A stretch of DNA of 62,317 nucleotides, the filler included, from Gemmatimonadota bacterium (GTDB lineage: Bacteria > 4572-55 > J002), in NCBI GenBank assembly GCA_003697105.1. It is 4 parts of 4 records of this genome, joined end to end, with 100 filler letters (N's around TTAATTAATTAA, not from the genome) between each part and the next. Parts side by side here need not be neighbours in the genome. Positions count along the whole stretch, not along the records: positions 28,621 to 39,519 come from RFFQ01000065.1; 3 more parts are not named here. One strand, given 5' to 3'. Positions 24,137 through 59,207 of the stretch are shown here, piece after piece. The position numbers were made by a program, and so were the translations under genes. The notes under the pieces are model-generated. The model did not search any database, was not told the origin of the DNA, and worked only from the letters and a program-made list of their open reading frames with translations. Every line of letters starts with the position of its first letter. The stretch's first letter is position 1.

Positions 24137-24172
24137 GCCCGTGAGGGGGAAATACCCCTCACGGGCTTTTTT
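24137..24172 (+). terminator. Intrinsic terminator of the kinase operon
   Basis: GCCCGTGAGGGG-gaaata-CCCCTCACGGGC then TTTTTT; overlaps the last codons of convergent apbE. Confidence 0.8.
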
Positions 24173-25232
24173 GGGTTTGGTAGGTCTGTTGTGTCGGGAA
24201 AAACTCCAAGTGGTAATCGTGTACTAAGGTGGAATCCAGATGCACGTTGCCGGATTCATCGATTCGTAAATAGGGATATTCCGGTTTCGGGTGGATGCTG
24301 AGGAGCGAATCCCCGACGACAAAGAAAAAGGTCGCCATTACATCTGCCGTTTCGGCAGTGGGAGCCAGAACCGTAACACTTTGGCACTGCCGGGCAGGAT
24401 AACCGGTGCGAGGGTCTAAAATGTGATGATAGCGAATGTCATCAATGATGGTGTAGCGCTCGTAATCTCCACTGGTCGCGATTGCAGAATTGGTGATTTC
24501 CAGTTTTGCCAACAGCGCTTCTGGCTGGCGCGGATGTTTAATGCCGATCACCCATCGTTGGTCTTCAAACTTAAAACCGGAGGCGTAAATATCGCCTCCG
24601 GCGTTGATCAGAAAGTCTGTAATTCCTTGCTCCCTCAAGGTTGCTGCAGCGCGGTCAATGGCATAACCTTTGGCAATCCCTCCCAAGTCGATCTGCATAC
24701 CCGGTATGGCAAACGCAACGGTTGTGTCTGCCGCATTGAGATCTAACTGGTGATAATCGACTTTTGCCCGCAATGGTTCGATTTCCTCTGGATACGGCAG
24801 GGTAATTTCGTCCTCACCACTGAATCCCCAACGTTTGCTCAGTACCCCAATGGTCACATCAAATAGACCGTTTGTCTGCTCGGCGTAGTGAATTGCCCGT
24901 TCTAAAATAGCGAACGTTTCCGCACTGACCTTGACCGGGTATTCACTGGCATGGGCGTTGATTCGGGCGATTTCACTCTCCGGTAGGTGGGAACTCAGCA
25001 GATGTTCCACCCGCTCCATCTCGTGGAAAGCGTGATAAAATGAGGTCCGGCACGCTTCCACATTCGGGTGCATGGCTTTTATTTCCACCAGCGTACCCAT
25101 CAAATATTTGGTGGCGCTGACTTCAAACTGCATCTCTTCTGCCGGTGTCGTTCCAGCGATCATCAGTGTCACGTAGAACAAAACTCGGACATTAACCCGC
25201 CACACTGTCCACTCCGTACGGTGAAATTCCAT
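24159..25232 (-). CDS. apbE: FAD:protein FMN transferase
   Basis: LMGT, GLFDVTIG, DLGGIAKGYAID, NAGGDI, ATSGDYER, HHILDPRTGYP, ADVMAT; exact start uncertain. Confidence 0.95.
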   Translation of the reverse strand: MEFHRTEWTVWRVNVRVLFYVTLMIAGTTPAEEMQFEVSATKYLMGTLVEIKAMHPNVEACRTSFYHAFHEMERVEHLLSSHLPESEIARINAHASEYPVKVSAETFAILERAIHYAEQTNGLFDVTIGVLSKRWGFSGEDEITLPYPEEIEPLRAKVDYHQLDLNAADTTVAFAIPGMQIDLGGIAKGYAIDRAAATLREQGITDFLINAGGDIYASGFKFEDQRWVIGIKHPRQPEALLAKLEITNSAIATSGDYERYTIIDDIRYHHILDPRTGYPARQCQSVTVLAPTAETADVMATFFFVVGDSLLSIHPKPEYPYLRIDESGNVHLDSTLVHDYHLEFFPTQQTYQTQKSP

Positions 25233-25857
25233 CTAGTGAAACTTGAATTTGGTTTGGAATGCAAACCAGATGTTGTCCGGCTTGATGAATTGCACCCATT
25301 TTTTGGCAGGTTTGATGCCGGCATTCCGCCGCCACAATCCGCACCTTGCCATTTTGGATGTGAACAACAACGTTGCCTTTCAGACCCTCCAGTTCCATTT
25401 CGGTATCCTGATGTAAGGGGTGCCGGACGAGTTGTTCATTACCACGATAAATATACACGTGTTGCGGTGTTGTGGTGAATGCCCCGGATACCAACCGGAT
25501 TAATATTGGGTTTTCTATTACTTGATCCCGGGCGAATTCACGGTAAATTTCTGCTAACCGGCACGATAGGTCATCGGTTTGCTGTTTGAAATTGATGAGG
25601 CGTTGATTCCGAATCAGTACCAAATCAGCGAGATGGTAGCCACTGAGAGGCACCTCCGAATAGCTGATTGTGCCACTTGCAAGTGCCGATCCCCGTAGAG
25701 CGGATTGAATGCGGTTCACGGCAATATCCGGTTGGGGTACGATCAAGGTTAAGGAAAAATCGGTAGTACGTGCCTGAGCAGAAACCGGTATAAACGGACT
25801 GAGTATCAGCCCGGAAGCAAACAGGGTACTCTGCTTGATAAAATCTCGACGATTCAT
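25192..25857 (-). CDS. Tat-exported protein with a C-terminal NusG domain II (DUF1312-like)
   Basis: MNRRDFIK twin-Arg signal; C-terminal GNVVVHIQNGKVRI..AECRHQTCQKMGAI...HLVCIPNQI pattern; AAGGA SD. Confidence 0.8.
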   Translation of the reverse strand: MNRRDFIKQSTLFASGLILSPFIPVSAQARTTDFSLTLIVPQPDIAVNRIQSALRGSALASGTISYSEVPLSGYHLADLVLIRNQRLINFKQQTDDLSCRLAEIYREFARDQVIENPILIRLVSGAFTTTPQHVYIYRGNEQLVRHPLHQDTEMELEGLKGNVVVHIQNGKVRIVAAECRHQTCQKMGAIHQAGQHLVCIPNQIQVSLDGISPYGVDSVAG

Positions 25858-25891
25858 TTGTGATAATCCTTTTGATAGATAAGAAACGGGT

Positions 25892-27064
25892 TCAAATTTC
25901 AAACCGTATCCCCACATTGATAATCAGTGCATACATATTGAGCATGCGGCTGTGCCAATCTGGGGTGGCGGTGTGCCGGTGGTAAACATTCAGCTTAAAA
26001 TGGAATGACTGGTGCTCGGTTGCCAGTGGAATATTCAGGAGCGGCAAGCGAAAACCGTCGGTAAATGTTGCGTTGAACTGGTATTCATTGGAAAACTGCT
26101 CATTGAGTTTGCTATCCACCGTCATGTAGCGTTCCGGCTCGGTGTAATGCTCCCTGAAAAACGATGCCTGCGACTGAAAATAACTGCGGATGCCCCAGCG
26201 CAGTCGTACCTGCCGGTTGTGGAAGTACCGGTTGTATGCCAGCGAGATGGTGTGCGAGTTGACATCCCAATCGTCCCAATAGTAACGATAACCGGCTTCC
26301 AACGCGGAAATATCACTGAGCAGGTAGTTGGTGCGGGTGCCAATCGCTTGCCGCCTCCGAGAATCCGGTACAACGGATTCATACGTACGAACAACCGGGT
26401 TTCCTCGATTATCCGTAGCCAGTATTTGCACCACCTGATAGGGATCGGAGAGAAACCCATTGTACTGAATGTAGGAAAAATTCAGTTGTGAAATCAAGCG
26501 GGGGCTCAAAATCTGCGAGATGCTGGAACTCAGATGCAAGACATCTTTGTTTTTTTGCCATGTGCGGATTTGCGGGGAAACCGTGTCCCAACTACGTACC
26601 ACGCCCGCTTGTAGGGTTGTGTTTTTCTTTGCCAGCGGGTAGGAGATATGGCCCGCTACTGTTGAGGATGTGTAGTCGTGTTCCGTGCTGTAAATGCCAT
26701 TTAGGGAGAGGGTAGCATCTCCAAGAATCTGGGTTATGCCGGCGTTGAGTTCGTGGCGAAGTTCGTCTGGGGTATTGTCCCCGCCACCGCTGGTTTTGTT
26801 TGTGGCAGAGGTCACCCCATCTACTTTGAACGTGCTCCGCATGGAGGCGGCAGAAATTACATCGACCAAATAACGACCCGTGACACTGGTGGACTCCGTG
26901 ACTTTTTTGGTGACCGTAACCGAGGGATAACCGATTTGCACGTTAAATGTATCAAAATAACCGCTCAGATTCACTTGAATTTCATCCGGAGGCAATTCCT
27001 GAGCAAATACCGGCAGTGAGACCCACAGCATCATCACCGCAATTCTTATCCCGAATTTATCCAC
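25892..27064 (-). CDS. DUF3570 family outer-membrane beta-barrel with flavinylation motifs
   Basis: Signal peptide from GTG 27064; DVISAAS and DGVTSAT motifs; STEHDYTS, GFLSDPY, YRYYWDDW, YFQSQASF; context with DUF4266, TlpA and ApbE. Confidence 0.85.
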   Translation of the reverse strand: MDKFGIRIAVMMLWVSLPVFAQELPPDEIQVNLSGYFDTFNVQIGYPSVTVTKKVTESTSVTGRYLVDVISAASMRSTFKVDGVTSATNKTSGGGDNTPDELRHELNAGITQILGDATLSLNGIYSTEHDYTSSTVAGHISYPLAKKNTTLQAGVVRSWDTVSPQIRTWQKNKDVLHLSSSISQILSPRLISQLNFSYIQYNGFLSDPYQVVQILATDNRGNPVVRTYESVVPDSRRRQAIGTRTNYLLSDISALEAGYRYYWDDWDVNSHTISLAYNRYFHNRQVRLRWGIRSYFQSQASFFREHYTEPERYMTVDSKLNEQFSNEYQFNATFTDGFRLPLLNIPLATEHQSFHFKLNVYHRHTATPDWHSRMLNMYALIINVGIRFEI

Positions 27065-27284
27065 AGCCGCATCCCCCACTTTGTGCTCCCGTGCCCCCTG
27101 CCGAACCCTCACGATAATCCAAATGATGCTCTTCAATACCCTTTTCAATGGGATTGGCATCAAAAATCATGATCGGATCGGCAAGGGATTCACGCTCCCA
27201 TGGTTGAACACGGGTACAGCCGCTAAACAGCGCTGGTGCTCCAATCAGCAATAGCAATACGATACTCCGGTACACTGTTTTCAT
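27057..27284 (-). CDS. DUF4266 family lipoprotein
   Basis: Lipobox FSGC, VQPWERESLADPIM, REGSAGG...GGCGCG C-terminus. Confidence 0.9.
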   Translation of the reverse strand: MKTVYRSIVLLLLIGAPALFSGCTRVQPWERESLADPIMIFDANPIEKGIEEHHLDYREGSAGGTGAQSGGCGCG

Positions 27285-27784
27285 TGGTTATCGTCCTTTA
27301 GCAACCGTTGTAATGTGGATTCATATTCCGCTTTTTCCGACGGATTGAAACCGGTGTGAATCGATTGTACAATCCCTTTTTTATCAATAAAATAAGTGGT
27401 TGGCATTGCGGCTAACTCGTAACGAGGCGGTAAGGTTGCCTGTTGATCCCAAAGGATGGGAAAGGTGGGGGCAGGCTCTAAGGAGTCTAAGAACGTTTTC
27501 ATGTTTTTTTCTTTTTTATCAATATTGATCGAGAGCAAGACAAAGTCATCGGACTGGTGCCGGTTGTAAAATTCTACAAAAAAGGGCATTGCCTGTTTGC
27601 AAGGGGTGCACCAGCTTGCCCAGAAGTCGATCAGTACCACTTTTCCCTGAAGATGTGATAGCTGCAGGGTATCTCCTTCCAAGGTGACGCCGTTAATGTC
27701 TGGGGCGGGTTGTCCCACCTCCACCGCATAAAGCGGCAGCGCCAAAAGCAGGATGATCCATCCGGCGGTGATGTTGGTTTTCAT
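27281..27784 (-). CDS. TlpA/ResA-like thiol-disulfide oxidoreductase
   Basis: Signal peptide; GKVVLIDFWASWCTPCK, AMPTTYFIDKKG; GAGGAG SD before ATG 27784. Confidence 0.92.
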   Translation of the reverse strand: MKTNITAGWIILLLALPLYAVEVGQPAPDINGVTLEGDTLQLSHLQGKVVLIDFWASWCTPCKQAMPFFVEFYNRHQSDDFVLLSINIDKKEKNMKTFLDSLEPAPTFPILWDQQATLPPRYELAAMPTTYFIDKKGIVQSIHTGFNPSEKAEYESTLQRLLKDDNQ

Positions 27785-27798
27785 AATTTGCTCCTCTG

Positions 27799-28095
27799 CT
27801 AATCGTCCCATTTTTGACCATGACATTGATAGCACGATGGCGCGATAGACTCAAAGATGCCATCTTCATCCACGTCGGCAGGGCCCCCTCGTAAGTCAGA
27901 ATGGTGGCAATTGGTGGCACTGCAGCCGCTCTCTTGCCGGTATGGATTCTCCAAGCCGGGCTTGTGGAGCGCCGTCCCTTGCCGGATAGTGTGATCCGAC
28001 GGTACACCCGGCTTATCACAACTGCTAATACCCACCGTTAAACCACTCAACGTGATGAAAATCCACCCAATCTTGATTACGTTTTGGTTCTTCAT
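27799..28095 (-). CDS. Small diheme c-type cytochrome lipoprotein
   Basis: Lipobox ISSC; CSATNCH (CX4CH) and CYQCH (CXXCH); two additional upstream His. Confidence 0.75.
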   Translation of the reverse strand: MKNQNVIKIGWIFITLSGLTVGISSCDKPGVPSDHTIRQGTALHKPGLENPYRQESGCSATNCHHSDLRGGPADVDEDGIFESIAPSCYQCHGQKWDD

Positions 28096-28520: not shown

Positions 28521-28620
28521 NNNNNNNNNNNNNNNNNNNNNNNNNNNNNNNNNNNNNNNNNNNNTTAATTAATTAANNNNNNNNNNNNNNNNNNNNNNNN
28601 NNNNNNNNNNNNNNNNNNNN
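28521..28620. other. Artificial contig spacer (N44-TTAATTAATTAA-N44)
   Basis: N runs around a six-frame stop linker. Confidence 0.98.
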
Positions 28621-28927
28621 AGGTGGTAAAAAAGAGTTCCTCGATCTCCACACCCGCCGGGTGGAATACAAAATGGGCTTCCCCGTTTAGGTAGGGATCA
28701 ACGGCGGACGTAAGCGACAGCTCAATATTTTGGACGTTAAAACCATTGTGCTGGGGGTCGTGCCCACCACCTTGCAACATCGGGATGGATTCTTCAGCAG
28801 CCGTCGATCCACCCACAGCAAATAAACCATTTAACGAGATTTGGGGATTCATCAAGGACGGTGTCTGGGCAAAGATAACCGCGACACCCCCCACGACAAT
28901 CCATAAGGATAACACTAAATTTTTCAT
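28621..28927 (-). CDS. 5' part of a zinc-regulated outer-membrane receptor/porin family protein; truncated at the gap
   Basis: Signal peptide; MNPQISL, GGHDP..NGF..Q.IELSL...VDPYL, VEIEELF motifs. Confidence 0.7.
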
Positions 28928-29051
28928 CAAACCGATCCCCTCTAATCTGTTGATTTTATTTGAATTATAAAACTATAGACCACCCCCTTACGTCCACCAT
29001 CTGCCTGACGTTCAGATAGGGATGGCATTGTTAATCAACTCAATAGTACGA

Positions 29052-29411
29052 TTAGAGAAAAGCCGGCGGGGAGTGTTTCGGAGCAAAATGAAGGATCGAT
29101 TGGGAGAAAAATACCGGTGTGGACAAAACGCGAGGTACCAAACACGGCAGCACTGTCCAGAACTGCCCAGCAACCAATAAAATAACACCGGTAGTCACAA
29201 ATAGTTGCCAAAGGGCACAATGTTCATGGGTTGAATTTGAAACGGGTGAAGAGGGTAACTCGTGGGAGTGATCCGTATGAGCGTGAACCAATTCGCCATG
29301 AGTGACACAATACTGGTGATCCACCAATAAAAAGTGGTTCAGTGCCACAAGTAGGCTACCAAGGTAAAACAGAGTTACGAATGGTGTTATCGCTTTGATT
29401 CGTCTCATCAT
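29052..29411 (-). CDS. His/Cys-rich small protein, putative metal-responsive leader (DUF2946-like layout)
   Basis: N-terminal hydrophobic helix, HQYCVTHGELVHAH, HEHC, C-terminal APKHSPP; start taken at ATG 29411 because the longer ORF-track start runs through the operator. Confidence 0.7.
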   Translation of the reverse strand: MMRRIKAITPFVTLFYLGSLLVALNHFLLVDHQYCVTHGELVHAHTDHSHELPSSPVSNSTHEHCALWQLFVTTGVILLVAGQFWTVLPCLVPRVLSTPVFFSQSILHFAPKHSPPAFL

Positions 29412-29436
29412 CACGGAATTTTTAGAGTTCTTATAC

Positions 29437-29453
29437 ATGCAACACTGTTGCAT
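29437..29453. promoter_or_regulatory. Zur-type operator
   Basis: Perfect 8-1-8 palindrome ATGCAACA-C-TGTTGCAT, 25 bp upstream of the leader ORF; matches the ATGCAAC-N3-GTTGCAT Zur consensus known from deltaproteobacteria. Confidence 0.75.
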
Positions 29454-29467
29454 CATGAGGATCAAAT

Positions 29468-30841
29468 TTATGCTTTAGACGCCTTTTTTGTCAAGAGATA
29501 AACACGGTGTTGGTGAAGAATCTCCGGTCGCAAATGACCCCGGTCATCGACAATCGACCGGCGAAAGTACCATCGCGATATTTCACTTGCCGGTTTAAAC
29601 TCCCGTTGAGATGCGTGACACATCAAAAAAGATTCATGTTCGGCATGAATATCCCTTACCCCAACGCCATCTCGCAATCGCCGGTCGCCGGTATAAATGC
29701 CGGTTTTGTGATGGTTTTTTATCTGGACTGGTGTTGGTTGCACATTACGAGCAATGATCTGCGATCTAAATTTTGGTTGTAAATACCGTTCTTGTAATGC
29801 ATTCAGATCGATTTGATAATTTGCGTTTAAATGCTCCAACAAATGGAGGGCTAACATTGGAATATCATCATCGATCACCTGTAGTTGGGTATAAAAAGCG
29901 ATGGATGCCACCAAACGCGGGTTGATTTCAATCAAATAGGGCTGATTGGCGATGCTATCGACCACAAAATCCAGTCCGAAAATGCCTTTATAACCGAGTG
30001 TTGCCAAATAATTGCCCATATTTTGGGTGATCCTCACCATCTCATCGATTGAAGAGGGGGGTAAGGGTGTGGAACGCCAGTCGTTACCGCACGAACCGAG
30101 CGGGTTTGCCGTCAGCTCCGGGACACCGGTGATTTGGTAAAACGGTGCGGAGCAGACCGTCCCGAAGCGGGTCACACAGGCGTTTATGGTCAATTTCAGT
30201 CCCTCGATATAGCGGGATATCCGCACGGTCTTACCTTTGATCTGTTCCTGAATTCGGGCAAAATCCGCCTCAGATTGGATGAAAAAGGTGCCATTTCCGG
30301 CAAAACTAAATCCCATTTGTAGAATTACCGGCAAACCCGTATCCAGAAGGCACTCCTGAAATCGCGGGCGGTCATTGAGTTTGATAATCCGATAGCCCGG
30401 CACGGGGAGATCAAGCTGTTTGGCAACTTCAAAAAAGCGGAGTTTGTTTTCCAACGGCAGGCTGCTTTTTGCGGGTGGCATAAGCGAATGCCATTGATTT
30501 TGGGTGACTACCTGCTCAATTTGCGCCGTAGGCTTAAAGTAGATCAGATGCGGCTCCGGTAGTGAATTTAGATAATCACGTACGCGATGATGGGCTAAAA
30601 TCAAATGCGTGGAGAGAAAATCTGGGTCAAAACCGCCCATTTCGTGCGTAAGAGACAAAACCGGCGGTTCCAGCAGGTGGCGAACCGGATCATCATCCCC
30701 GCAAATAATGTGGAAATTCGGGAGAATCTCATCCAAACCCACCGCGTAATGGATGGTATTGGTGACAAAAACAACCGGGGGTTGGTCGTGGAATAGCGGT
30801 GGCAGGTCTGAATTGGAACGTATCATCAGAGGGGTCATCAA
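29468..30841 (-). CDS. ATP-grasp domain protein of unknown specificity
   Basis: LENKLRF, PVILQ...AGNGTFFI, RYIEG, GIFGLDF, YLIEINPRL. Confidence 0.85.
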   Translation of the reverse strand: MMTPLMIRSNSDLPPLFHDQPPVVFVTNTIHYAVGLDEILPNFHIICGDDDPVRHLLEPPVLSLTHEMGGFDPDFLSTHLILAHHRVRDYLNSLPEPHLIYFKPTAQIEQVVTQNQWHSLMPPAKSSLPLENKLRFFEVAKQLDLPVPGYRIIKLNDRPRFQECLLDTGLPVILQMGFSFAGNGTFFIQSEADFARIQEQIKGKTVRISRYIEGLKLTINACVTRFGTVCSAPFYQITGVPELTANPLGSCGNDWRSTPLPPSSIDEMVRITQNMGNYLATLGYKGIFGLDFVVDSIANQPYLIEINPRLVASIAFYTQLQVIDDDIPMLALHLLEHLNANYQIDLNALQERYLQPKFRSQIIARNVQPTPVQIKNHHKTGIYTGDRRLRDGVGVRDIHAEHESFLMCHASQREFKPASEISRWYFRRSIVDDRGHLRPEILHQHRVYLLTKKASKA

Positions 30842-31107
30842 AAAACCGATACATTTATCGTCAGCAAACGGCGATCTTCACGAGTGGGACAATCCACTTG
30901 GGGAGTTTGTGCCCATTCCAGATTTTGCAAATTTTGCAAGACGTGTTGCTCGTATGGATTACGACGAAAGCTACAAATTTACGCTCAGAGGCGAGAGCCG
31001 CCCCTACCAAAATCATAGAAACACGCTATTGTTGCTAATTTTGCCGTGAAAATAAAAGCGTAGCGAGTTTAGAGTTCAATTCCACCAAACTTACAAGCTG
31101 CCAAGCT

Positions 31108-31986
31108 CTATTTAACGACCGCTTTCGCCAGTAGAATCAGCATCCGCCCGCTAATCGCAAAGTAAACCAACCCGTCCAGCAATCGATTTTGACCCGCTAA
31201 AAATTTATTATAATAGATAATCATCGCCTGATGAAAGACAAATGTCATGTAGATGGGTCGTCGCCGGCTACTGCGGCGGTAGTAGTGTGTACAGGTTGCC
31301 CCGGCTTCGTAATAAATTCGCCAACCCGCTTCGCCGATACGCCGGCTCCAGTCTAAATCTTCACCGTACATAAAATAGGCTTCATCCCAGCCGCCCACCT
31401 GATCGATGACCTCGCGCCGGACTAGGAAAAACGCACCGGAAAGGGCTTCCACCTCCCCAGAGTGATCCGGGGCAAGGTAGGTGAGATTATACTTACCCAA
31501 TCTGGGATGCGTGGGAAAAAGACGGGCTAAACCGGTCAATTTGGCGAACGATGCCAGCGGATCGGGCAATCCACGGCGGGAGGTATAAATAAAAGTGCCG
31601 TCGGGGGCATTCATTCGGCATCCGGCGGCGCCAATATCGGGGTGGTGCTCCATCAACTGGAGCATTGTTTGTAGGGTGTCCGGCGCCACCACATTATCCG
31701 GGTTCAAAAAAAGAAGGTAACGCCCCGAACTGACCGCAATACCCTGATTGCACGCATGAGCAAACCCCCAGTTTTTATCATTTTCAAGGCAGATCACTTG
31801 CGGAAATTCAGTCCGAACCATCGTCATGGAATCATCGACTGAATCATTATCTACCACAATTACTTCCATTGAAAAATCACCACGGGAGGCAAACACGGCT
31901 TGCAACGCCAATCGCAAGAAATTCTTGACATTGTAATTGACGATGATAATCGATAAGTCAACGGGAGGCACGGTAAATTTTCTCAA
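31108..31986 (-). CDS. GT2 glycosyltransferase (WbbL-like)
   Basis: SIIIVNYN, VVDNDSVD, NWGFAHACNQG, FLNPD, SGAFFL, FMYGEDLD. Confidence 0.93.
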   Translation of the reverse strand: MRKFTVPPVDLSIIIVNYNVKNFLRLALQAVFASRGDFSMEVIVVDNDSVDDSMTMVRTEFPQVICLENDKNWGFAHACNQGIAVSSGRYLLFLNPDNVVAPDTLQTMLQLMEHHPDIGAAGCRMNAPDGTFIYTSRRGLPDPLASFAKLTGLARLFPTHPRLGKYNLTYLAPDHSGEVEALSGAFFLVRREVIDQVGGWDEAYFMYGEDLDWSRRIGEAGWRIYYEAGATCTHYYRRSSRRRPIYMTFVFHQAMIIYYNKFLAGQNRLLDGLVYFAISGRMLILLAKAVVK

Positions 31987-32968
31987 TAATTTCGACGGTT
32001 TTTAGTCCTTCAATCCCGGTTGTAGCGATTTGCTCCCGCCCCAGAATGGTTTCCACCACATTGGCGATCACTTTATCATGATTGGACATCGAACCGTGAT
32101 AAAAACCGTAGTCATTGGCGGGTGAGGATTGGGGTACGTCCTGAATAACAAAATCTTGAATATTCTGATATTCCAACACATTCAGATATTGTCCACCAAT
32201 TTTAACGGTTCCTTTTTCCGCAAAAATGGTGATGGAACCTTCCATATTTTTTTGATGGGCGCATATAGTATAAGTGATCGTCCCGATAGCGCCGCTTTTA
32301 AACTCCAGCAACGCTCCGCCACAATCCTCAAAATCAATATAATCGTGGGCAACATTCCGGCGAATTGCCTGTACGGTAGTAACATCACCAATCAGCCAAT
32401 AGAGCAGATCAATAAAATGACTAAATTGCGTGAATAGCGTACCGCCATCTTGCTCCAACCGTCCTTTCCAACTGGAATGTTGGTAGTATGCCTTGTTTCG
32501 ATTCCAATAGCAATTTACGGCAACCTGATAAATGTTGCCGAACCGTCCGGTCTCAATTGCCTGTTTTACAGCAACAACCGGCGGATTATAGCGATTTTGC
32601 TTCACCACAAAGAGCATTTTCTGCATTTTTTCGGCGGCATGGAGCATATCCAAACAATCCGAAGAACGCAATGCCATTGGTTTTTCGCACAGCACATGGT
32701 GTCCGGCATTCAAAGCGCGAATGGAAAGGGGTGCATGGGTGTTATTGGGGGTACAAATCGTGATCACATCAACTGTCGGATGCTTCTCCAGCAGGTCTGA
32801 AAGATGGCGATACGCCGGGACATCAAAGCCCTCTGCTCGTGCCTCTACCACATCACAAGTAGCGACTAATTCTGCTTGCGGATGCGCTTTAATGTGCCGG
32901 ATATGGCGTTGCCCAATAGCACCACAGCCGACAACGGCAAATGAAATCGATTTCAACAGACACCTCAC
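31958..32968 (-). CDS. Gfo/Idh/MocA oxidoreductase (WbpB/WlbA-like UDP-GlcNAcA 3-dehydrogenase)
   Basis: VVGCGAIG, CEKPMA, VVKQNRYNP, DGGTLFTQFSHFID, NMEGSITIF. Confidence 0.85.
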   Translation of the reverse strand: MRCLLKSISFAVVGCGAIGQRHIRHIKAHPQAELVATCDVVEARAEGFDVPAYRHLSDLLEKHPTVDVITICTPNNTHAPLSIRALNAGHHVLCEKPMALRSSDCLDMLHAAEKMQKMLFVVKQNRYNPPVVAVKQAIETGRFGNIYQVAVNCYWNRNKAYYQHSSWKGRLEQDGGTLFTQFSHFIDLLYWLIGDVTTVQAIRRNVAHDYIDFEDCGGALLEFKSGAIGTITYTICAHQKNMEGSITIFAEKGTVKIGGQYLNVLEYQNIQDFVIQDVPQSSPANDYGFYHGSMSNHDKVIANVVETILGREQIATTGIEGLKTVEIIEKIYRASR

Positions 32969-35508
32969 AGTTGGCGGCGCTTTTTGATGCCAAATTCCCA
33001 GCCAAACACGAGCAAGATAAACAACAACGCCACGCTCCCGGAGATCACCCCAGCCCGGAAAGGTGGGTCTTGGAATTTAAATTCAATGGTGTGTTCACCC
33101 GCGGGAACCCGGATAGAACGCAAGGCATAATTGGTTTTGTAAATATCAACTTTTTCACCGTTAATATAGGCGTGCCAGCCGGGGGGATAATTGACTTCGC
33201 TCAGAACCAGCAAACATTCCTGAGCAATATTGGCATGAAGTGTAATCTGATGAATATCAAAATCGGTGACCTGAACCGTACTCCCCGTTTTATCACCAAA
33301 CGAAAAATAGCCAAGTGAATCTGCCTCGCCTAAATTTAAATCATACGTGGATTCCAATACGGCGGCTTGAGCTGGATTAAATGTTGGGCTTTTCAGTTCA
33401 TCAAATATGGCTTTGGGGTCTGTCAGCACTTTTACCCGATCCACCAGATATGCCCGCGGCAAATTTTTGAGATTTTGATAGACGATCATCCCATTACTTT
33501 GAAACACTTGCCGAAAATCCGGGTGGGGAAACTGTCCCGAAACCACCAGATATTTGCCATTGAACATCGCCATCGCAGTGGATAACCGCTCAACATTGAG
33601 CTGTCCATTGGGGAACAGGACGTAATCAAACATATCTTGTATGACCCGTAACTTGGCGGCGTGGTATCCCCCCATCGACTCAATCAGGTAATATGCCCAA
33701 ATATTATTTTGAAAGAGGTCACCGACACCTTGGACATTTCCCAAGCTGAGTATTCGGAATTTCCCGGTATCTTGCTTGAGAAAATCCGCTACTGGGTCGG
33801 TGATGGCAAGCTGGCTGTTAACCACCGTGGGTTCTGCTTTGGCAACGGTGAATCGCCGGTTGAGAAGCCACAAATCGAGAGTCAACACTACCAGAACCGC
33901 GATCACAAATGTCCGCCGGTTCAAGCGACGTTGGATGGCTAAGATCAGCAAGGCACAACTGACAACCATGAAAAAGGTCATCCGGTACACATCTTTTTTC
34001 GCCATATCAAACCGCTGTGCCGCTAAATAGTTGATCGTGGCTTCATCGTATGTCGCCCGGTCCCGGTCACGGGTGAACATGCCATCTTGGCGCAGGGATT
34101 GGTACAACCCGTTACCACCAACGGCAAAAATCAGACTGATTAAAATGGAAACCGCCGCAATGGTTGCGAGTCCTTTCCACAAAAATTGGAATTTCGGTTC
34201 GAGCTTCTTTTTAACCGTTTCAAATTGATCGAGTAATACTTGTAAACCAAATCCGGCGAGGACAGCTACGGCAAATTCCAGCAGAACCAACACCATTGCC
34301 GGCACCCGAAACTTGTTAAAATACGGAAGATGATTCAGTAAAAATTCACTGAGGAGGGGAAAATGCCGTCCAAAACTAACCAGTAAGGAGACGATACCGA
34401 GAATCAGCATAAAAACGGTAATGCGATTCCGGCGAAACAAGAGCGCAATCGCGGAAAGCAATAAGGGTAAAAGCCCCATATAGAGCGAATTTTGGGTAAA
34501 CGGCATCTGCCCCCAATAGAAACCGCCCTGCTCACCCACCCCATAAAATGCTGGGACAAAAAAGGTGATAATTTCCTCGGGAGGGAAAGACCAACTGGTG
34601 GCGTAATCATGAGAAAGACCGGTTTTCGGCGCGGTTGTATCCAACGCGGGTGGAACACCCCGGATGGAATAGTGGCTGTATTCCTGAACCGGTCCAAAAT
34701 AAATATACGAGAGCGCAAAACCGATCAACACAGCAATGGCACACAATCCGCCCCCTAAAACAACTTTGAAATTACGCTTCGCTAATTCGATGATAACCCA
34801 GTAAAGCGTGAACGCACCGAGCATCAGCAGAGTATAATAGGCAATTTGGGGGTGCTGGGCAAGAAGTTGCAACCCAATCGTCAAACCTGCCAGGGCCAAA
34901 TAAAAAAGCGACGGTGATTCCAATAGACGTAAAATAGCGTAAAACGTCCACGGGATGTACATGATCGTCCATAGCTTCCCGCCGTGTGCAATGGGGATTA
35001 AGCCGACAAAATGGGGCATTAGCATAAACGTGATGGCGCCCAGCAAAGAAGCACTTCGTGCCAATTTTAAGTGACGCAGCAACAGATAAAGCCCGAGAGC
35101 ACCAAAAATGAAATGGAGAAGATGCGGATGAAGTACACGTCCGGTACTGAATGGAAGTTTGGCGATAATTGTACGGTGAAATATATCGACTGGATAAACA
35201 ATGGAATGGATCATACTCCCAAAACTTGGCATTCCCGAAAATATGTAAGGTGTCCATTGTGGATAGTAACCTTTTGAGACCGCTTCTTTTGTAAAATGCG
35301 CCGCATATGTCCCGGCAGAGGCATCGGCGGCATTAAACGTTTTGCCTAAAAAGGTATACTCAAAAAATTGGCTATAAATTAGCACCGCAAAAATCAGTAA
35401 AACGATGAGGTTAAAGTAGCGATTCACGTACGTTGGTATTGAGGAGGAACCACTCGCGGAACCGGATGGTGTTCGGCTTCTTTTTGTTTGTTTTTTCTTT
35501 TTTCCCAT
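32965..35508 (-). CDS. YfhO family membrane protein (GT-C-like)
   Basis: WTPYIFSGMP, HPQIAYY, YSHYSIRG, FNKFRVP, GYHAAK, NLPRAYL, SEVNYPPGW..YING, NYALR. Confidence 0.9.
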   Translation of the reverse strand: MGKKKKQTKRSRTPSGSASGSSSIPTYVNRYFNLIVLLIFAVLIYSQFFEYTFLGKTFNAADASAGTYAAHFTKEAVSKGYYPQWTPYIFSGMPSFGSMIHSIVYPVDIFHRTIIAKLPFSTGRVLHPHLLHFIFGALGLYLLLRHLKLARSASLLGAITFMLMPHFVGLIPIAHGGKLWTIMYIPWTFYAILRLLESPSLFYLALAGLTIGLQLLAQHPQIAYYTLLMLGAFTLYWVIIELAKRNFKVVLGGGLCAIAVLIGFALSYIYFGPVQEYSHYSIRGVPPALDTTAPKTGLSHDYATSWSFPPEEIITFFVPAFYGVGEQGGFYWGQMPFTQNSLYMGLLPLLLSAIALLFRRNRITVFMLILGIVSLLVSFGRHFPLLSEFLLNHLPYFNKFRVPAMVLVLLEFAVAVLAGFGLQVLLDQFETVKKKLEPKFQFLWKGLATIAAVSILISLIFAVGGNGLYQSLRQDGMFTRDRDRATYDEATINYLAAQRFDMAKKDVYRMTFFMVVSCALLILAIQRRLNRRTFVIAVLVVLTLDLWLLNRRFTVAKAEPTVVNSQLAITDPVADFLKQDTGKFRILSLGNVQGVGDLFQNNIWAYYLIESMGGYHAAKLRVIQDMFDYVLFPNGQLNVERLSTAMAMFNGKYLVVSGQFPHPDFRQVFQSNGMIVYQNLKNLPRAYLVDRVKVLTDPKAIFDELKSPTFNPAQAAVLESTYDLNLGEADSLGYFSFGDKTGSTVQVTDFDIHQITLHANIAQECLLVLSEVNYPPGWHAYINGEKVDIYKTNYALRSIRVPAGEHTIEFKFQDPPFRAGVISGSVALLFILLVFGWEFGIKKRRQL

Positions 35509-35546
35509 GATGTTTGTTGCCTATTTTAGTGAAAGAAAATGACACT

Positions 35547-36497
35547 TCAAGGGTGAATTAACTGTTTTGCATTTTGGTGGTAGATACGATCATAAACGTT
35601 CGCCGGTAAATCCAGTGAATCCAAAAACGATTTTAATCCAAGTTGATAATTATCCGTGCCATATAACAATTTGGTCGCATATCGGATTAAAAATGTTCGC
35701 GCAAACGTCGGATCGCGGGTTAGGGCATAATACCCACTCCCTCCCGATAAATCGGCATAAAGATTATCATAGGTTGTTAATAGATAGCAAATAATGCCCT
35801 CTTGATCAATATGTCCCGTTGGATATTGGACATCCTTTGGCACGTCCTTACTGATATTTTTCCAAAAAAAAGGTCCGTGCCCGATGAATTTTATATCCGG
35901 GTACTGTTGTAATGCCCGTTCCAAGGTCTCAAAATCCATCAAATAGCCAGAAAAGTGATACTGTAATTCTTTATATTTTTTCCGGAGTACCGGGATGCCG
36001 TTACAGAGCCATCGTGCTGTTTTTGCCGGAATCCCTCCTAACTTGTGAGTGCGGAAACATTTGGCTAACACCTGATCAAAACGGTGTTCTGCCTGAAACG
36101 AAAATCCCTGATGACCTTCCTCCATGTGAAAAATCAAGGGTAATTTTAATTGATGGATACATTCCAGCAGGGGCTGAAGTTGCGGGGAATCCCAACGGAC
36201 ATTTGCTTTGAGTTCGCCACAGCCTCGGATCCCTTTGTGATAGTACTCCTGAAATCGTTCCACCGCATCAGGACGGTTAGGGTCTGGGGCGTAAAAAGGA
36301 ACAATGCGATCCGGGTATTTTTGATACGCTTCTAACACCGGTTCAACCGGAAAAGGATGATAATTCCATTTAATGTGATTTCCCACTTCTTCCCACGTGA
36401 GGAGCCAACATTTATCCAGATGATAGGTATCGAGATACTCAATAAGGGTTTCTGCTGTAATGCCGTTTAAGCCTAAATGCAGATGGGAATCGATCAT
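35547..36497 (-). CDS. Amidohydrolase family protein
   Basis: IDSHLH, GCGELK, IFHME, IGHGP, YADLSG, LYGTD, NAKQL. Confidence 0.85.
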   Translation of the reverse strand: MIDSHLHLGLNGITAETLIEYLDTYHLDKCWLLTWEEVGNHIKWNYHPFPVEPVLEAYQKYPDRIVPFYAPDPNRPDAVERFQEYYHKGIRGCGELKANVRWDSPQLQPLLECIHQLKLPLIFHMEEGHQGFSFQAEHRFDQVLAKCFRTHKLGGIPAKTARWLCNGIPVLRKKYKELQYHFSGYLMDFETLERALQQYPDIKFIGHGPFFWKNISKDVPKDVQYPTGHIDQEGIICYLLTTYDNLYADLSGGSGYYALTRDPTFARTFLIRYATKLLYGTDNYQLGLKSFLDSLDLPANVYDRIYHQNAKQLIHP

Positions 36498-36500
36498 AGT

Positions 36501-37490
36501 TTATTGAATTAAGTGTTCCTCAAGGGCTTGCTGCTTCATGCCTTGACATTTATAAAAATGGATAATAGAACGATACCACAAAAATAGCAAGGGTCGAGGA
36601 AATAACCGTTCTGCCAACGGCAAACTGGTTCTGAAAACCGAATGAATGATTGGATTCTGGATTCCATAACGCGAGATCAGATTACCAATGCGGCGCTGAA
36701 ATGATGGTTTGGCATCGGGTAAAGGCATCACCCGATCAATTTGTAAATCTTCTGCTAATTCCGGTAATTTTAGATAACACAATACCGCAGATTTTCCAGC
36801 AGAAATCGTGCGCTCACAATATCGTTTCAAGGTTGGGTTATAATAATGATAGGATTGGGCTTGAGGGCTGTAGTAAAAGCGGGTTTTTAATTCGCGGTAT
36901 AGCCGAAATCCAATTGCTAAATCTTCATTTCCGTAAATTCCTTTACCAAAACTTTCATCATCAAACCCTCCAACCTTCCAAAACGACTCTCGACTCACGG
37001 AAATATTCCCTCCTTGGAAATACCAGTACGGTTTTGCCGTATCAATCCGACCAGCTTTCTTCGGAAAAATTTGCTGATTGCCCCCATGATCGATAAAATC
37101 AATAAAACGTCCGGTTGCATAATGTGCCGGAATCTGCTTATGCCCTAAAACCACACAATTTGTATCGGATTGGTGATAGTACCAATGTCCAGAAACAAGG
37201 CTCGGTGAGACCTCCATATCATCATCTAAAAAGAGCAATGCCTGACCAGAAGCTTCTCTGGCACCCGCATTTCGGGAATACGGATACCCCCGATTTTCGT
37301 GACGTTCATAGATGAATCGGCATGGCATTTCGACCGAATTGAGATAATCGTTGGTATCGGTATCCGAACCGTCATCGGAGACAATGACTTCATACCGGTC
37401 AGCCGGAAAATCTTGGTGAGATAAAGATTCCAAACACAGTTTCAGTATATCTAACCGGTTATAAGTAGTAATGATAACCGAAACATCCAT
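36501..37490 (-). CDS. GT2 glycosyltransferase
   Basis: SVIITTYNR, VSDDGSD, RNAG, FLDDD, GGFDD, ED. Confidence 0.92.
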   Translation of the reverse strand: MDVSVIITTYNRLDILKLCLESLSHQDFPADRYEVIVSDDGSDTDTNDYLNSVEMPCRFIYERHENRGYPYSRNAGAREASGQALLFLDDDMEVSPSLVSGHWYYHQSDTNCVVLGHKQIPAHYATGRFIDFIDHGGNQQIFPKKAGRIDTAKPYWYFQGGNISVSRESFWKVGGFDDESFGKGIYGNEDLAIGFRLYRELKTRFYYSPQAQSYHYYNPTLKRYCERTISAGKSAVLCYLKLPELAEDLQIDRVMPLPDAKPSFQRRIGNLISRYGIQNPIIHSVFRTSLPLAERLFPRPLLFLWYRSIIHFYKCQGMKQQALEEHLIQ

Positions 37491-37494
37491 AATG

Positions 37495-38586
37495 TTACTC
37501 CCAAAACAGAACGGTTTCCGAAAATAATTCTTCCACGATAGGGATTATGCCCTGGTCGTGCGTCAAGGCTTCCGGAGCCATCTTAATAGCAGAGATGACT
37601 TGGGTTTGCGGTGAAAATAACGACGCATACAACATCGTTGAGGAGAAAAGGGTGATCACATAATCAATTGATAACGCTTTTAAGAGAATTTCCACAGGTA
37701 GCCCCTTCAATTGTGAAATCAGTTTTATGGGGAATCCGGCGATATCATAGAAATATGTGTACTTTTCCGATGATTCCCGAGGGTGCGGTTTTAGGAAGAG
37801 GGTATCCACATGCAGTTCGTGTTGAATCCGTTGGACAATATTGGCGTAAATTGCTAACTCACGCTGTTCGGTAAGACCTCGATCCGCCGATAAGGGTTGG
37901 GTGAGCAGCAGCGCGGTTTTTCCGTCCACGGTCGGCAATGCTTCAAGGTGATCGATCCAAGTAGTAAGCTTAGTTGCTATTTTTTTTTGGATTAAGTTCC
38001 CCAGATCATGCACCGGCTTATTGGGAAAAAAAGCCCACTTGCGAAATTTATCGGGATATACAACGTAACTGCTATCATTGATCTTATTTTTTCCTAACAC
38101 ATAATGGTAGCATGCTAGGCCATAATGAAACACCAGTTTATCAGTTAAAAAGCGCCCAATAACTTTATGGTAAGGTTCTTTTTTTATCCGTTGGATATAG
38201 GTACCTAACCCTTCTTCGATAAAATAGGTTTTATCGGGTTCAATCCAGCGGTGAATGATTTGGTTATTTAACTGAGTGTCATTCGACCAGAATACAATCC
38301 GTTCGGTATCGGTATTTCGGCGTGTATAGGGGAAATTCTCTTTTAACTTTCTGGCATCACGAAGCCAATTCCAGTTTAAATATTTATTTCGTGGAAAAAG
38401 GATTTCTTCATGAATTTCATCCCAATCGGATGTCGCAAATAGGGCTGGGTGGATATTTTTTTGGGGTCCCGTCAGAATGAGAATACAGGGTACCGACCGG
38501 CCGATGTCTGCTTTCCATTGATCCGCAATCAGACTGGAAAAGATGATGTGCAAAGGTGTTGAGGCGATAAAAAAAAGTTCTGTCAT
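37495..38586 (-). CDS. Sialyltransferase-like glycosyltransferase (GT38/GT52 type)
   Basis: TPLH, IEEGLGTY, TQP, KPHPRE, PVE, FSST motifs. Confidence 0.75.
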   Translation of the reverse strand: MTELFFIASTPLHIIFSSLIADQWKADIGRSVPCILILTGPQKNIHPALFATSDWDEIHEEILFPRNKYLNWNWLRDARKLKENFPYTRRNTDTERIVFWSNDTQLNNQIIHRWIEPDKTYFIEEGLGTYIQRIKKEPYHKVIGRFLTDKLVFHYGLACYHYVLGKNKINDSSYVVYPDKFRKWAFFPNKPVHDLGNLIQKKIATKLTTWIDHLEALPTVDGKTALLLTQPLSADRGLTEQRELAIYANIVQRIQHELHVDTLFLKPHPRESSEKYTYFYDIAGFPIKLISQLKGLPVEILLKALSIDYVITLFSSTMLYASLFSPQTQVISAIKMAPEALTHDQGIIPIVEELFSETVLFWE

Positions 38587-38592
38587 TTCGCG

Positions 38593-39519
38593 TTATCTCC
38601 AGCGAACCCAAGTAGTAAACGAGAACCGGTATTTCCATACCATTATCATGGAAAAAAGACCTAAAATGACAAGCTTAACGCTGTATTGCCATATCGGGGA
38701 TTCCCATAAGGATGCTATTGGTAAGGTGACCCCATATACTAAAACGAGTATCAAAGTTGGTACGGCAAGCGTTAATAAAGATGTAGTATGCAACTGCAGA
38801 ACATATTTACTGACCCCCCAACCTCCCAGTGCCATAATTGCATATGAAATTACCGTGGTGTAAGCACTAGCTTCGTATCCAAACATCGGAATATAGATCG
38901 AATTTAAAAGGATATTGATGATACCGGCACTAAGTGCAATTACAGAGGTCCAGATCGTTTTGTAGGCAAAACCTAAGTTTCGACCCCACACTTGCCACCA
39001 ATATACAAAAATATGCCCAAATACCACGATCGGAATCAGATGTAATGCGGTATGATAGGATGCCGCCGATATAATCTGTCCAATGAGTTCGCCAAATAAC
39101 ATTAAAAATAGCGCACAAATTAAAACTAACCGCATCATTTTATCAACATCTAAATCCAGTTGGTGGTAAGATTTGGACTTCATGTATTCATAGTAATCGG
39201 GCGTCCATGCCGTTAGTAATGCGGTCAGGAAGAGATTTAAGACAGTTCCGATATTGTAGGCAAAACTATATAATCCGGTTGCCGCAGAATCAATATAATT
39301 ATTGATCATAATTCGGTCAAACTGGGCTAAGATAATCCCACTCAGTTGATAGGGTACTAATGGTAATGAATATCTGAGAATATACCGGATATGGTGGCGG
39401 TTAAAGGCAACTGAAAAATAGGGTTTTACATAATAGACAATGGCACCACTTAGAATACCACCGATAATGATTTGCCCCCAAATTAGCCCTAGATACCGGT
39501 CTGTTTGTAACATCAAGAC
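38593..39519 (-). CDS. Wzx-type polysaccharide flippase, 5' end truncated at the gap
   Basis: YSLPLVP, QFDRIMI, GLYSFAY, AWTP, NILLNSIYIPMFGYEASAYTT. Confidence 0.88.
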   Translation of the reverse strand, partial: VLMLQTDRYLGLIWGQIIIGGILSGAIVYYVKPYFSVAFNRHHIRYILRYSLPLVPYQLSGIILAQFDRIMINNYIDSAATGLYSFAYNIGTVLNLFLTALLTAWTPDYYEYMKSKSYHQLDLDVDKMMRLVLICALFLMLFGELIGQIISAASYHTALHLIPIVVFGHIFVYWWQVWGRNLGFAYKTIWTSVIALSAGIINILLNSIYIPMFGYEASAYTTVISYAIMALGGWGVSKYVLQLHTTSLLTLAVPTLILVLVYGVTLPIASLWESPIWQYSVKLVILGLFSMIMVWKYRFSFTTWVRWR

Positions 39520-39619
39520 NNNNNNNNNNNNNNNNNNNNNNNNNNNNNNNNNNNNNNNNNNNNTTAATTAATTAANNNNNNNNNNNNNNNNNNNNNNNNN
39601 NNNNNNNNNNNNNNNNNNN
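39520..39619. other. Artificial contig spacer
   Basis: N-TTAATTAATTAA-N. Confidence 0.98.
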
Positions 39620-59107: not shown

Positions 59108-59207
59108 NNNNNNNNNNNNNNNNNNNNNNNNNNNNNNNNNNNNNNNNNNNNTTAATTAATTAANNNNNNNNNNNNNNNNNNNNNNNNNNNNNNNNNNNNN
59201 NNNNNNN
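59108..59207. other. Artificial contig spacer
   Basis: N-TTAATTAATTAA-N. Confidence 0.98.

Follow-up and report, generated by a model that had tools for sequence, protein, structure and literature searches.

A putative zinc-uptake operon of a Gemmatimonadota bacterium headed by a probable Zur operator and a His/Cys-rich leader with an Arg-free APKxSPP tail

We analyzed a stretch of DNA of 62,317 nucleotides, filler included (the window), from the metagenome-assembled genome of a Gemmatimonadota bacterium (GCA_003697105.1; 4.18 Mb in 199 contigs, completeness 96.85%), and examined within it a small leader open reading frame (ORF) that lies between a perfect palindrome and the start of an outer-membrane protein gene. 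The window consists of joined contigs, of which C131 occupies positions 1-28520 and C132 (RFFQ01000065.1) positions 28621-39519, and N runs around TTAATTAATTAA form the linkers at 28521-28620, 39520-39619 and 59108-59207. An initial annotation, made from the sequence alone, had read this locus as a two-tier zinc module composed of a Zur-type box, a leader with an arrest-like tail and a zinc-regulated outer-membrane receptor.

The leader ORF (29052..29411, minus strand) encodes a protein of 119 amino acids (P0001), which is a distant, unannotated relative of DUF2946 that resembles CruR and CutF, and no other copy of it was found in the genome. After the residues MMRRIK it carries an N-terminal hydrophobic helix at about residues 8-25 (29337..29390, minus strand), a predicted export signal or membrane anchor. 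This helix is followed by a putative first metal motif, H26-X5-H32-XX-C35-XX-H38, and then by GELV-H43, H45, H48 and H50 (29262..29336, minus strand; the region includes HQYCVTHGELVHAHTDHSH), and by a putative second metal motif, H62-E-H64-C65 (HEHC; 29217..29228, minus strand). Residues 110-116 (29064..29084, minus strand) read APKHSPP, a putative arrest motif that stands three codons (AFL) before the stop. The helix, the His/Cys clusters from H32 onward and the APKHSPP tail had been named in the initial annotation, and all were found in place. An AF2 model built with an alignment placed helices at residues 3-29 and 66-86, a small beta-hairpin at 32-35/40-43 and coil over the last 30 residues, and outside the two helices and the hairpin (32-43) the leader is predicted to have little structure.

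Downstream of the leader lies the 5' part (102 codons; 28622..28927, minus strand) of a gene for a His-rich, porin-like outer-membrane barrel that contains the motifs GGGHDP and VDPY. Because the leader locus stands at the very start of C132 (first base 28621), this gene is cut by the assembly break at the contig end. The remainder of the porin gene (262 codons), followed by genes for ZnuA (PF01297) and an ABC-3 permease (PF00950), was found at the end of contig C108 (locus L056), with about 31 porin codons missing between the two pieces, as judged from alignment A4. The matches of the two downstream genes to PF01297 (2.1e-50) and PF00950 (2.1e-30) identify a ZnuABC-type binding protein and permease. 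The same order of leader, porin, ZnuA and ABC-3 permease was found in a low-GC metagenome relative (L062), and the operon of this genome, as reconstructed from sequence, is leader, porin, ZnuA and ABC-3 permease, syntenic with L062. Public contigs in runs X1 and X2, which may come from the source sample, extend 3.55-3.7 kb past position 28621 and show only that the DNA continues. No ATPase gene was present in the leader operon (L056 1007-3534, minus strand) or in L062, and the ATPase may be borrowed from a zur-znuACB operon on contig C6, which is described below.

The porin family (about 390-460 amino acids) gave no match to Pfam or NCBIfam, and its conserved motifs are GGHDP, VDPYF, HPHxW and a C-terminal GAHGAHxF. 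An AF2 model of a porin homolog (12 sequences; predicted local distance difference test score, pLDDT, 69; predicted template-modelling score, pTM, 0.71) matched the 16-strand porins VhChiP chitoporin, OprP/OprO and Omp32 with Foldseek E values of 1e-11 to 1e-10. On this model, the downstream protein is a plug-less 16-strand porin-like barrel and not a TonB-dependent receptor (TBDR), which would have a plug and a 22-strand barrel. The outer-membrane protein with GGHDP and VDPY that had been proposed downstream of the leader is retained, but as a modelled porin and not as a receptor. A porin loop at about 3250-3300 of L056 carries an acidic, His-rich insertion, EDEEEHGHAHGLRDDDPEH, which is absent from most homologs in alignment A4.

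Upstream of the leader, the perfect 7-3-7 palindrome ATGCAACACTGTTGCAT, that is ATGCAACA-C-TGTTGCAT, occupies positions 29437..29453 with 0 mismatches, and its 3' edge lies 25 nt upstream of the leader ATG at 29411, just as first described for the 119-amino-acid ORF. A sigma-70-like promoter (29465..29494, minus strand) with TTGACA, a 17-18 nt spacer and ATAAAT/TAAATT (10 of 12 hexamer matches) would start transcription at ~29457-29459 and would place the palindrome at about +5 to +21. The promoter is a consensus match only, with two promoter-like sites in the region against a shuffle mean of 2.0. Its hexamers lie within the 3' end of the upstream gene (29468-30841, minus strand), which encodes a 457-amino-acid ATP-grasp protein (PF02655; partial match to the biotin carboxylase model NF005096) and ends 14 nt before the palindrome.

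Within the window alone the palindrome was not beyond chance, as one or more matches with up to two mismatches turned up in 37 of 100 shuffles. In the 4.18 Mb genome, its core, TGCAAC-N3-GTTGCA, occurs exactly twice, against ~0.25 copies expected from a uniform-base estimate; with one mismatch allowed the core gave 9 sites versus 8 for a control pattern, which is background only, and the 17-mer with up to two mismatches gave 13 sites versus 12 for the control. The other copy, TTGCAACTAAGTTGCAA, precedes by 65 nt a 141-amino-acid ORF that is the sole Fur-family gene of the genome (PF01475) and whose product has Zur as its top NCBIfam match (34.8 bits, against a cut-off of 167). Directly after this gene come ZnuA (PF01297), an ABC_tran ATPase and an ABC-3 permease, in the arrangement of a zur-znuA-znuC-znuB operon. 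The second copy overlaps the promoter of the Fur-family gene, with its left arm as the -35 element (TTGCAA, 17 nt, TATATT; read by eye). Two copies, of which one stands on the zinc operon of the regulator itself, are the pattern classically expected of a Zur operator under autoregulation. Since there are only two genomic copies and the other lies on the zur-znuACB promoter, the palindrome is probably a Zur operator, and a candidate operator of the single Fur-family regulator of this genome, a putative Zur. Within its own genome, the Zur box proposed initially is shared with that promoter and with no other site. The "established" consensus invoked for it could not be verified, and neither ATGCAAC-N3-GTTGCAT nor TGCAAC-N3-GTTGCA was found as a published Zur consensus in the literature searched, where the sole match was a primer.

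The palindrome might instead be the site of another regulator, an RNA hairpin at the 5' end of the transcript, or coding sequence (MMQQCCM...). The chance level within the window, the lack of a published consensus of this form, a public gene call (P0002) that begins upstream of the palindrome, and the fold of the palindrome as RNA, at only -7.1 kcal/mol, all speak for such a reading. However, a pattern with exactly two genomic copies, the other at the promoter of the only Fur-family gene together with znuACB, argues against it, as does the position of both copies at or beside promoter hexamers (the second by eye), and no N-terminal extension that would make the palindrome coding was conserved among homologs in the alignment. 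We consider a non-Zur identity of the palindrome improbable.

A third, related perfect palindrome, ATGCAATGTTATTGCAT, was noted at G000:C193:8206-8222 (about 4207-4223 of L053), between a carboxyltransferase gene and a divergent gene for a FadL/Toluene_X-like outer-membrane protein; this could be a chance occurrence or a weaker target of the same regulator. In L062, a different AT-rich palindrome, TGTATAATAATATACA (3968-3983), lies 20 nt upstream of the leader ATG, at a matching position.

The arrangement resembles Zur-repressed znuABC/ZnuD-type systems in that the gene for the Fur-family repressor lies beside znuACB and in that an operator is shared by the operon of the regulator and a second uptake operon with an outer-membrane component. 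It differs from them in its outer-membrane part, which is a predicted plug-less porin-like barrel with conserved His motifs and not the TonB-dependent ZnuD, in the presence of a leader ORF between the operator and the transporter genes, and in an operator, TGCAAC-N3-GTTGCA, for which no published match was found.

To collect relatives of the leader, a word-index search recovered the leader itself only, while HMMER yielded 33 representatives and a 48-sequence profile 351 clusters. None of 60 other genomes put forward as relatives yielded the leader protein; the lineage is isolated, since only 2 of these belong to the same class and the others share the domain only. No Pfam domain was assigned among the 120 listed matches of the 351-cluster profile search, and the names among the matches listed were "hypothetical protein" with one exception. 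In alignments of 32 and 48 sequences (A1 and A5), the only invariant columns were H26, H32, C65, A110, P111, P115 and P116, and C35, H38, H64, K112 and S114 were present in at least 90% of sequences. In addition, species genomes were scanned with the N-terminal pattern H..C.[ED]HGE alone, which gave a set of 39 loci, mostly from Myxococcota with some from Planctomycetota, that is independent of the tail. AP[KS]x[SGA]PP was found near the stop in 39 of these 39 loci, as APKx[SA]PP in 36, APKQGPP in 2 and APSHSPP in 1, always beside the stop codon. Thus, the His/Cys sites and the terminal tail, whose conservation had been put forward as a check on the initial reading, are invariant or nearly so, with the tail a few codons from the stop.

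The position and spacing of the tail are also constrained. Between Pro-Pro and the stop codon stands 1 residue in 28 members, 2 in 17 and 3 in 14 (59 of 71 in all), and Pro-Pro lies within 11 residues of the C-terminus in 70 of 71 members and within 8 in all 119 of a second set. The distance from the Cys of HXHC to the first Pro of Pro-Pro is 50 residues in this leader and 50-53 in 51 of 66 members and in 114 of the 118 top profile matches, with a mode of 52 (74 of 118), and for the first metal motif the corresponding distance ranges over 76-119. The stretch of 44-49 residues that separates HXHC from the tail is not conserved in sequence but is fixed in length, which makes a ruler a more apt description than a fold. 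In 145 of 151 members, a Kyte-Doolittle window of at least 1.6, a crude measure of a signal sequence or transmembrane segment, lies ahead of the first His motif, and a second hydrophobic stretch occurs in just 21 of 151. Several synonymous codons are used at every motif position among 79 distinct loci, which points to selection on the peptide, and conservation of the motif as an RNA element was dropped as an explanation for the same reason. At 14 of 38 loci, the first Pro of Pro-Pro is encoded by CCU or CCA, the rarer codons, whose share in the background of neighbouring long ORFs is 17% (binomial p 0.003, overstated because the loci are related). This bias is absent at the second Pro and at P111, and CCUCC is complementary to a Shine-Dalgarno (SD) sequence.

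To define the genetic context of the family, the first recognisable downstream gene was recorded at 84 loci (39 from genomes and 45 from metagenomes). The next gene encodes a porin of the same family in 30 loci, of which 25 continue with ZnuA and the other five have less than 1.6 kb of flank; a TBDR in 36 loci; ZnuC in 2; and CobW in 1. Thus, 69 of the 84 leaders are followed by a porin, TBDR, ZnuC or CobW gene, and nothing recognisable lay downstream in 15, eight of which have less than 600 nt of downstream sequence. The position predicted for the leader, upstream of this outer-membrane family or of znuABC, was borne out, as it lies directly upstream of the same outer-membrane family with ZnuA/ZnuB, or of a TBDR, ZnuC or CobW. 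When 113 downstream ORFs were scanned against Pfam, no copper family was among the matches. From this gene content, zinc is supported as the metal of the porin, ZnuC and CobW classes.

Two features of these flanks were noted apart from the leader. Receptors that follow the leader in Myxococcota have an N-terminal TonB_C domain before Plug in 14 of the 17 Plug-bearing ORFs scanned (L013, L015, L021, L025, L029, L036-L038, L041, L043 and others), with ExbB/ExbD downstream in several, and at two loci (L017:7565-9127 and L023:8798-10348) HEAT repeats are fused to the C-terminus of the ABC-3 permease.

The initial annotation had related the leader to DUF2946, and this kinship proved real but weak. 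The leader scores 17.9 bits against PF11162 (E 0.0056), with positions 30-108 of the 117 in the profile aligned, and E <=0.1 was reached by 11 of 32 relatives (best 2.6e-5). Its closest neighbours among Atlas clusters consist of proteins of 126-137 amino acids from Myxococcota, one of which was auto-named DUF2946. No match to PF11162 at E <=1e-5 was found in 401 sampled genomes. These sub-threshold scores and the Atlas neighbours place the leader family as a distant branch at the edge of DUF2946.

Two DUF2946-type leaders have been studied. CruR (Bp2923) of Bordetella pertussis heads an operon for a TonB-dependent transporter (TBDT) and has a CXXC motif and an RAPP motif three residues from its end, with 45 intervening residues whose length is important; copper relieves the arrest of translation, after which Rho terminates transcription (PMC9426467). 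Arrest by CruR was later demonstrated in vitro (PMC12992588). CutF of Rhodobacter capsulatus has a signal peptide, a CXXXC motif and a PPP tail (PMC9973294), and copper-induced stalling on it melts a stem-loop that masks the ribosome-binding site of the next gene (PMC9973294; bioRxiv 10.1101/2025.02.05.636593). Neither could be detected as a protein, and both act in cis (PMC9426467, PMC9973294). A survey of CutF-like proteins distinguished 29 clusters with Cys, His or mixed motifs, and because its His-only clusters adjoin HupE/UreJ, metals besides copper are to be expected in this class; the word "zinc" is absent from the main text of that survey (PMC9973294).

The leader family shares with CruR the position of a small exported protein encoded first in a metal-uptake operon with an outer-membrane transporter, a putative Cys-containing metal motif whose spacing to a C-terminal Pro-Pro is fixed (about 47-49 intervening residues, versus 45 in CruR), with that Pro-Pro ~3 residues before the stop, a poorly structured prediction and weak similarity between hidden Markov models. 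It differs in its ligands (HX5HXXCXXH and HXHC, versus CXXC), in its tail (APKxSPP without Arg, versus RAPP), in its context (ZnuA/ZnuB, CobW and porin genes, versus copper genes) and in its taxa, which are mostly metagenome-assembled genomes of Myxococcota and Planctomycetota plus the present deep lineage. CutF resembles the leader in having a signal sequence, a putative metal motif and a Pro-rich C-terminus, and at this locus also in a predicted helix that hides the ribosome-binding site of the next gene and that a ribosome on the tail would open. However, CutF switches on a detoxifying enzyme with copper, and an uptake operon would need the opposite sign; its PPP lies in EGPPPRL, whereas the leader tail is APKxSPP, and the leader family possibly overlaps with one of the 29 survey clusters.

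The tail itself was compared with arrest peptides of the RAPP/RGPP type, which likewise have an invariant C-terminal Pro-Pro motif near the stop of a small secreted or membrane protein encoded upstream of a regulated gene, and a small residue, Ser in the leader family, before Pro-Pro. In contrast to these peptides, the leader lacks the Arg and has a near-invariant Lys one position upstream, with an invariant Ala-Pro before the Lys. In SecM, ApcA, ApdA and ApdP the Arg is irreplaceable, and RSPP, with Ser for Ala, is partly permissive in ApdA and ApdP (PMC12992588). Judged by its residues, APKxSPP, if it arrests translation, is a different motif from the RAPP class.

The end of the leader is also predicted to pair with the start of the porin gene. 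An anti-SD arm, GCCGG-C-UUUUCUCUAAUC (29050..29067, minus strand), starts within the first Pro codon and continues through the second, the Ala-Phe-Leu codons and the stop codon to 2 nt beyond, and the SD arm, GAUUAGAGGGGAUCGGU (28931..28947, minus strand), immediately precedes the TTG/ATG start of the porin gene. In both the minimum free energy (MFE) and the centroid structures, the last codons of the leader pair with the porin SD region through 17 pairs. The duplex has a predicted energy of -20.8 kcal/mol, compared with -12.0 +/- 2.8 kcal/mol for shuffled tails, of which 5 in 1000 were as good, and 0 of 336 sliding windows in the leader ORF equalled it. The modelled probability that the SD is unpaired was 0.16 in free mRNA and 0.005 with a ribosome 30 nt upstream. 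In the MFE structure of L062, the codons after Pro-Pro (CUCCUGU) likewise pair with the SD (ACAGGAG). The imperfect intergenic hairpin to which the initial annotation had drawn attention (28997..29025, minus strand) is present at -11.4 kcal/mol (z -1.42) but is not distinctive, since 17 of 200 shuffles fold as well.

Altogether, we favor, with a probability of about 0.6, a reading in which this locus begins a zinc-uptake operon with control at two layers, one by Zur and one by a metal-sensing nascent chain that acts in cis. At sufficient cytoplasmic zinc, Zur would repress transcription here and on its own zur-znuACB operon. The 119-amino-acid leader, exported or anchored in the membrane, would act in cis as the metal-sensing nascent chain, and the ribosome that translates it would pause at Ser-Pro-Pro of the APKxSPP tail. 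The paused ribosome would cover the last leader codons and so free the porin SD, allowing translation of porin, ZnuA and ZnuB. Given its fixed distance of ~52 residues from Pro-Pro, HXHC would just be emerging from the ribosome or translocon at the pause, as ~52 residues would approximately span the exit tunnel plus the SecY channel by our geometric estimate. Metal that bridges the HX5HXXCXXH and HXHC motifs would cause the chain to fold or to be pulled, ending the pause; the leader would then terminate, the tail/SD helix would re-form and expression would fall. The sign of this action follows that of CruR and would suit an uptake system. Zur binding, arrest, the metal, the direction of its effect and the sensing compartment are what we infer in this scheme.

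Several results weigh against the two-layer scheme. The start of the leader is uncertain, as the public gene call P0002 has 134 amino acids and an ORF from the TTG at 29465 would have 137, and in either reading the palindrome would be coding. No common operator emerged when the regions preceding the 39 homologs were searched for perfect palindromes and for AT-rich islands, and the palindrome core occurred in uninformative contexts in the two genomes of the same class. The DUF2946 match of the leader lies below the gathering cut-off of 23.7 bits. None of the 36 TBDR-class loci has ZnuABC within the flanking sequence available (one has CobW), and for this receptor half of the family zinc is no more than possible; of the proposal that the leader is a zinc-flavored analogue of the DUF2946 leaders, the different ligands, the zinc-gene context of the other classes and the terminal tail stand. 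The best NCBIfam matches of the binding protein and permease were AztC and AztB (zinc), below the curated cut-offs and with MntC close, so that manganese is also possible. A search for RNA data sets that contain this locus listed none. The position of the RAPP Arg is variable in the leader family (T, L, H, N, Q and others among 119 top matches; H in this leader), and with an invariant Lys one residue upstream, APKxSPP is not an RAPP motif. With respect to the RNA, a ribosome on Pro-Pro raised the modelled probability of an unpaired SD from 0.16 to only 0.32, the fold of the whole 171-nt region had a z score of -0.97, and the duplex in L062 gave p = 0.066, with 43 of 348 windows as good. Among the 39 genome loci, there was no excess of pairing between the tail and downstream sequence (mean z -0.12; 1 of 39 below -2), which suggests that the tail/SD helix may be local to some lineages and that others may use Rho, as CruR does.

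This last result bears on two other explanations. In one, the leader would be a stable, membrane-anchored periplasmic metal-binding accessory, such as a metallochaperone or a protein that partners the porin or receptor, in which APKxSPPA serves docking or processing and no arrest occurs. Conserved His/Cys ligands together with an N-terminal anchor, constant association with genes for outer-membrane transport proteins, a tail lacking the Arg that RAPP-type arrest requires (PMC12992588) and the limited generality of the tail/SD pairing agree with such a function. On the other hand, an accessory protein would not be expected to conserve the motif residues alone while keeping 44-49 intervening residues fixed in length, which suits a ruler, nor to place Pro-Pro 1-3 residues from the stop in most members, to be always encoded first in its operon or to end in 30 residues of predicted coil, and the nearest known relatives, CruR and CutF, are undetectable, cis-acting products (PMC9426467, PMC9973294). 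We consider the accessory function unlikely. In the other explanation, the leader would be a CruR-type attenuator, in which the ribosome paused at SPP keeps Rho off the transcript until metal frees that ribosome, whereupon Rho ends transcription before the porin gene, so that the tail/SD helix would be incidental. CruR, at the head of a TBDT uptake operon, works in this way (PMC9426467), intergenic distances in the leader family range from about 9 to more than 200 nt, and no tail/SD helix is general to the family; but the intergenic region of this locus is AT-rich, with no C-rich, G-poor tract noted by eye, and its tail/SD duplex is better than 995 of 1000 shuffles. Attenuation by Rho at this locus is, in our assessment, less likely still than an accessory protein, and we retain translational control through the tail/SD helix, beneath Zur, as the preferred reading.

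On the other side of the linker, a gene cluster (24159-28095) on contig C131 is uninformative on the leader operon, because genes flanking a linker are not neighbors. C131 also has a 98-amino-acid ORF (27799-28095, minus strand) with a weak match to TIGR01904, a CxxxxCH/CxxCH c-type cytochrome model (E 3e-4, below the cut-off).

To our knowledge, metal-sensing leader peptides are documented for copper only, in CruR and CutF, whose gene-context surveys hint at nickel and cobalt as well. The literature searched contained no branch that combines a link to ZnuA/ZnuB, CobW and porin genes with HX5HXXC/HXHC ligands and an APKxSPP tail free of Arg. Metal-sensing DUF2946 leaders as such are known, and what appears new is the ZnuA/ZnuB-linked branch with an Arg-free tail, which has no family annotation. 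A bolder proposal, that APKxSPP is a new Arg-free arrest sequence and that the family is the first nascent-chain sensor of zinc, with a 52-residue ruler at the translocon exit, is tentative and in our view falls somewhat short of even odds.

If this bolder proposal is true, a translational layer that reads the periplasm would sit atop Zur in hundreds of Myxococcota, Planctomycetota and other lineages. A zinc-uptake branch with other ligands and an Arg-free proline tail would widen the class of metal-sensing leaders, and APKxSPP would offer arrest-peptide research a new motif to set against the RAPP rules, with the fixed 52-residue spacing as a testable ruler for the location of the sensing site on the path from ribosome to translocon. 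Further outcomes are a probable Zur operator in a deep lineage that has been sampled little, and an unannotated family of His-rich porins, encoded together with ZnuA/ZnuB, through which zinc may cross the outer membrane by a route that has no plug.

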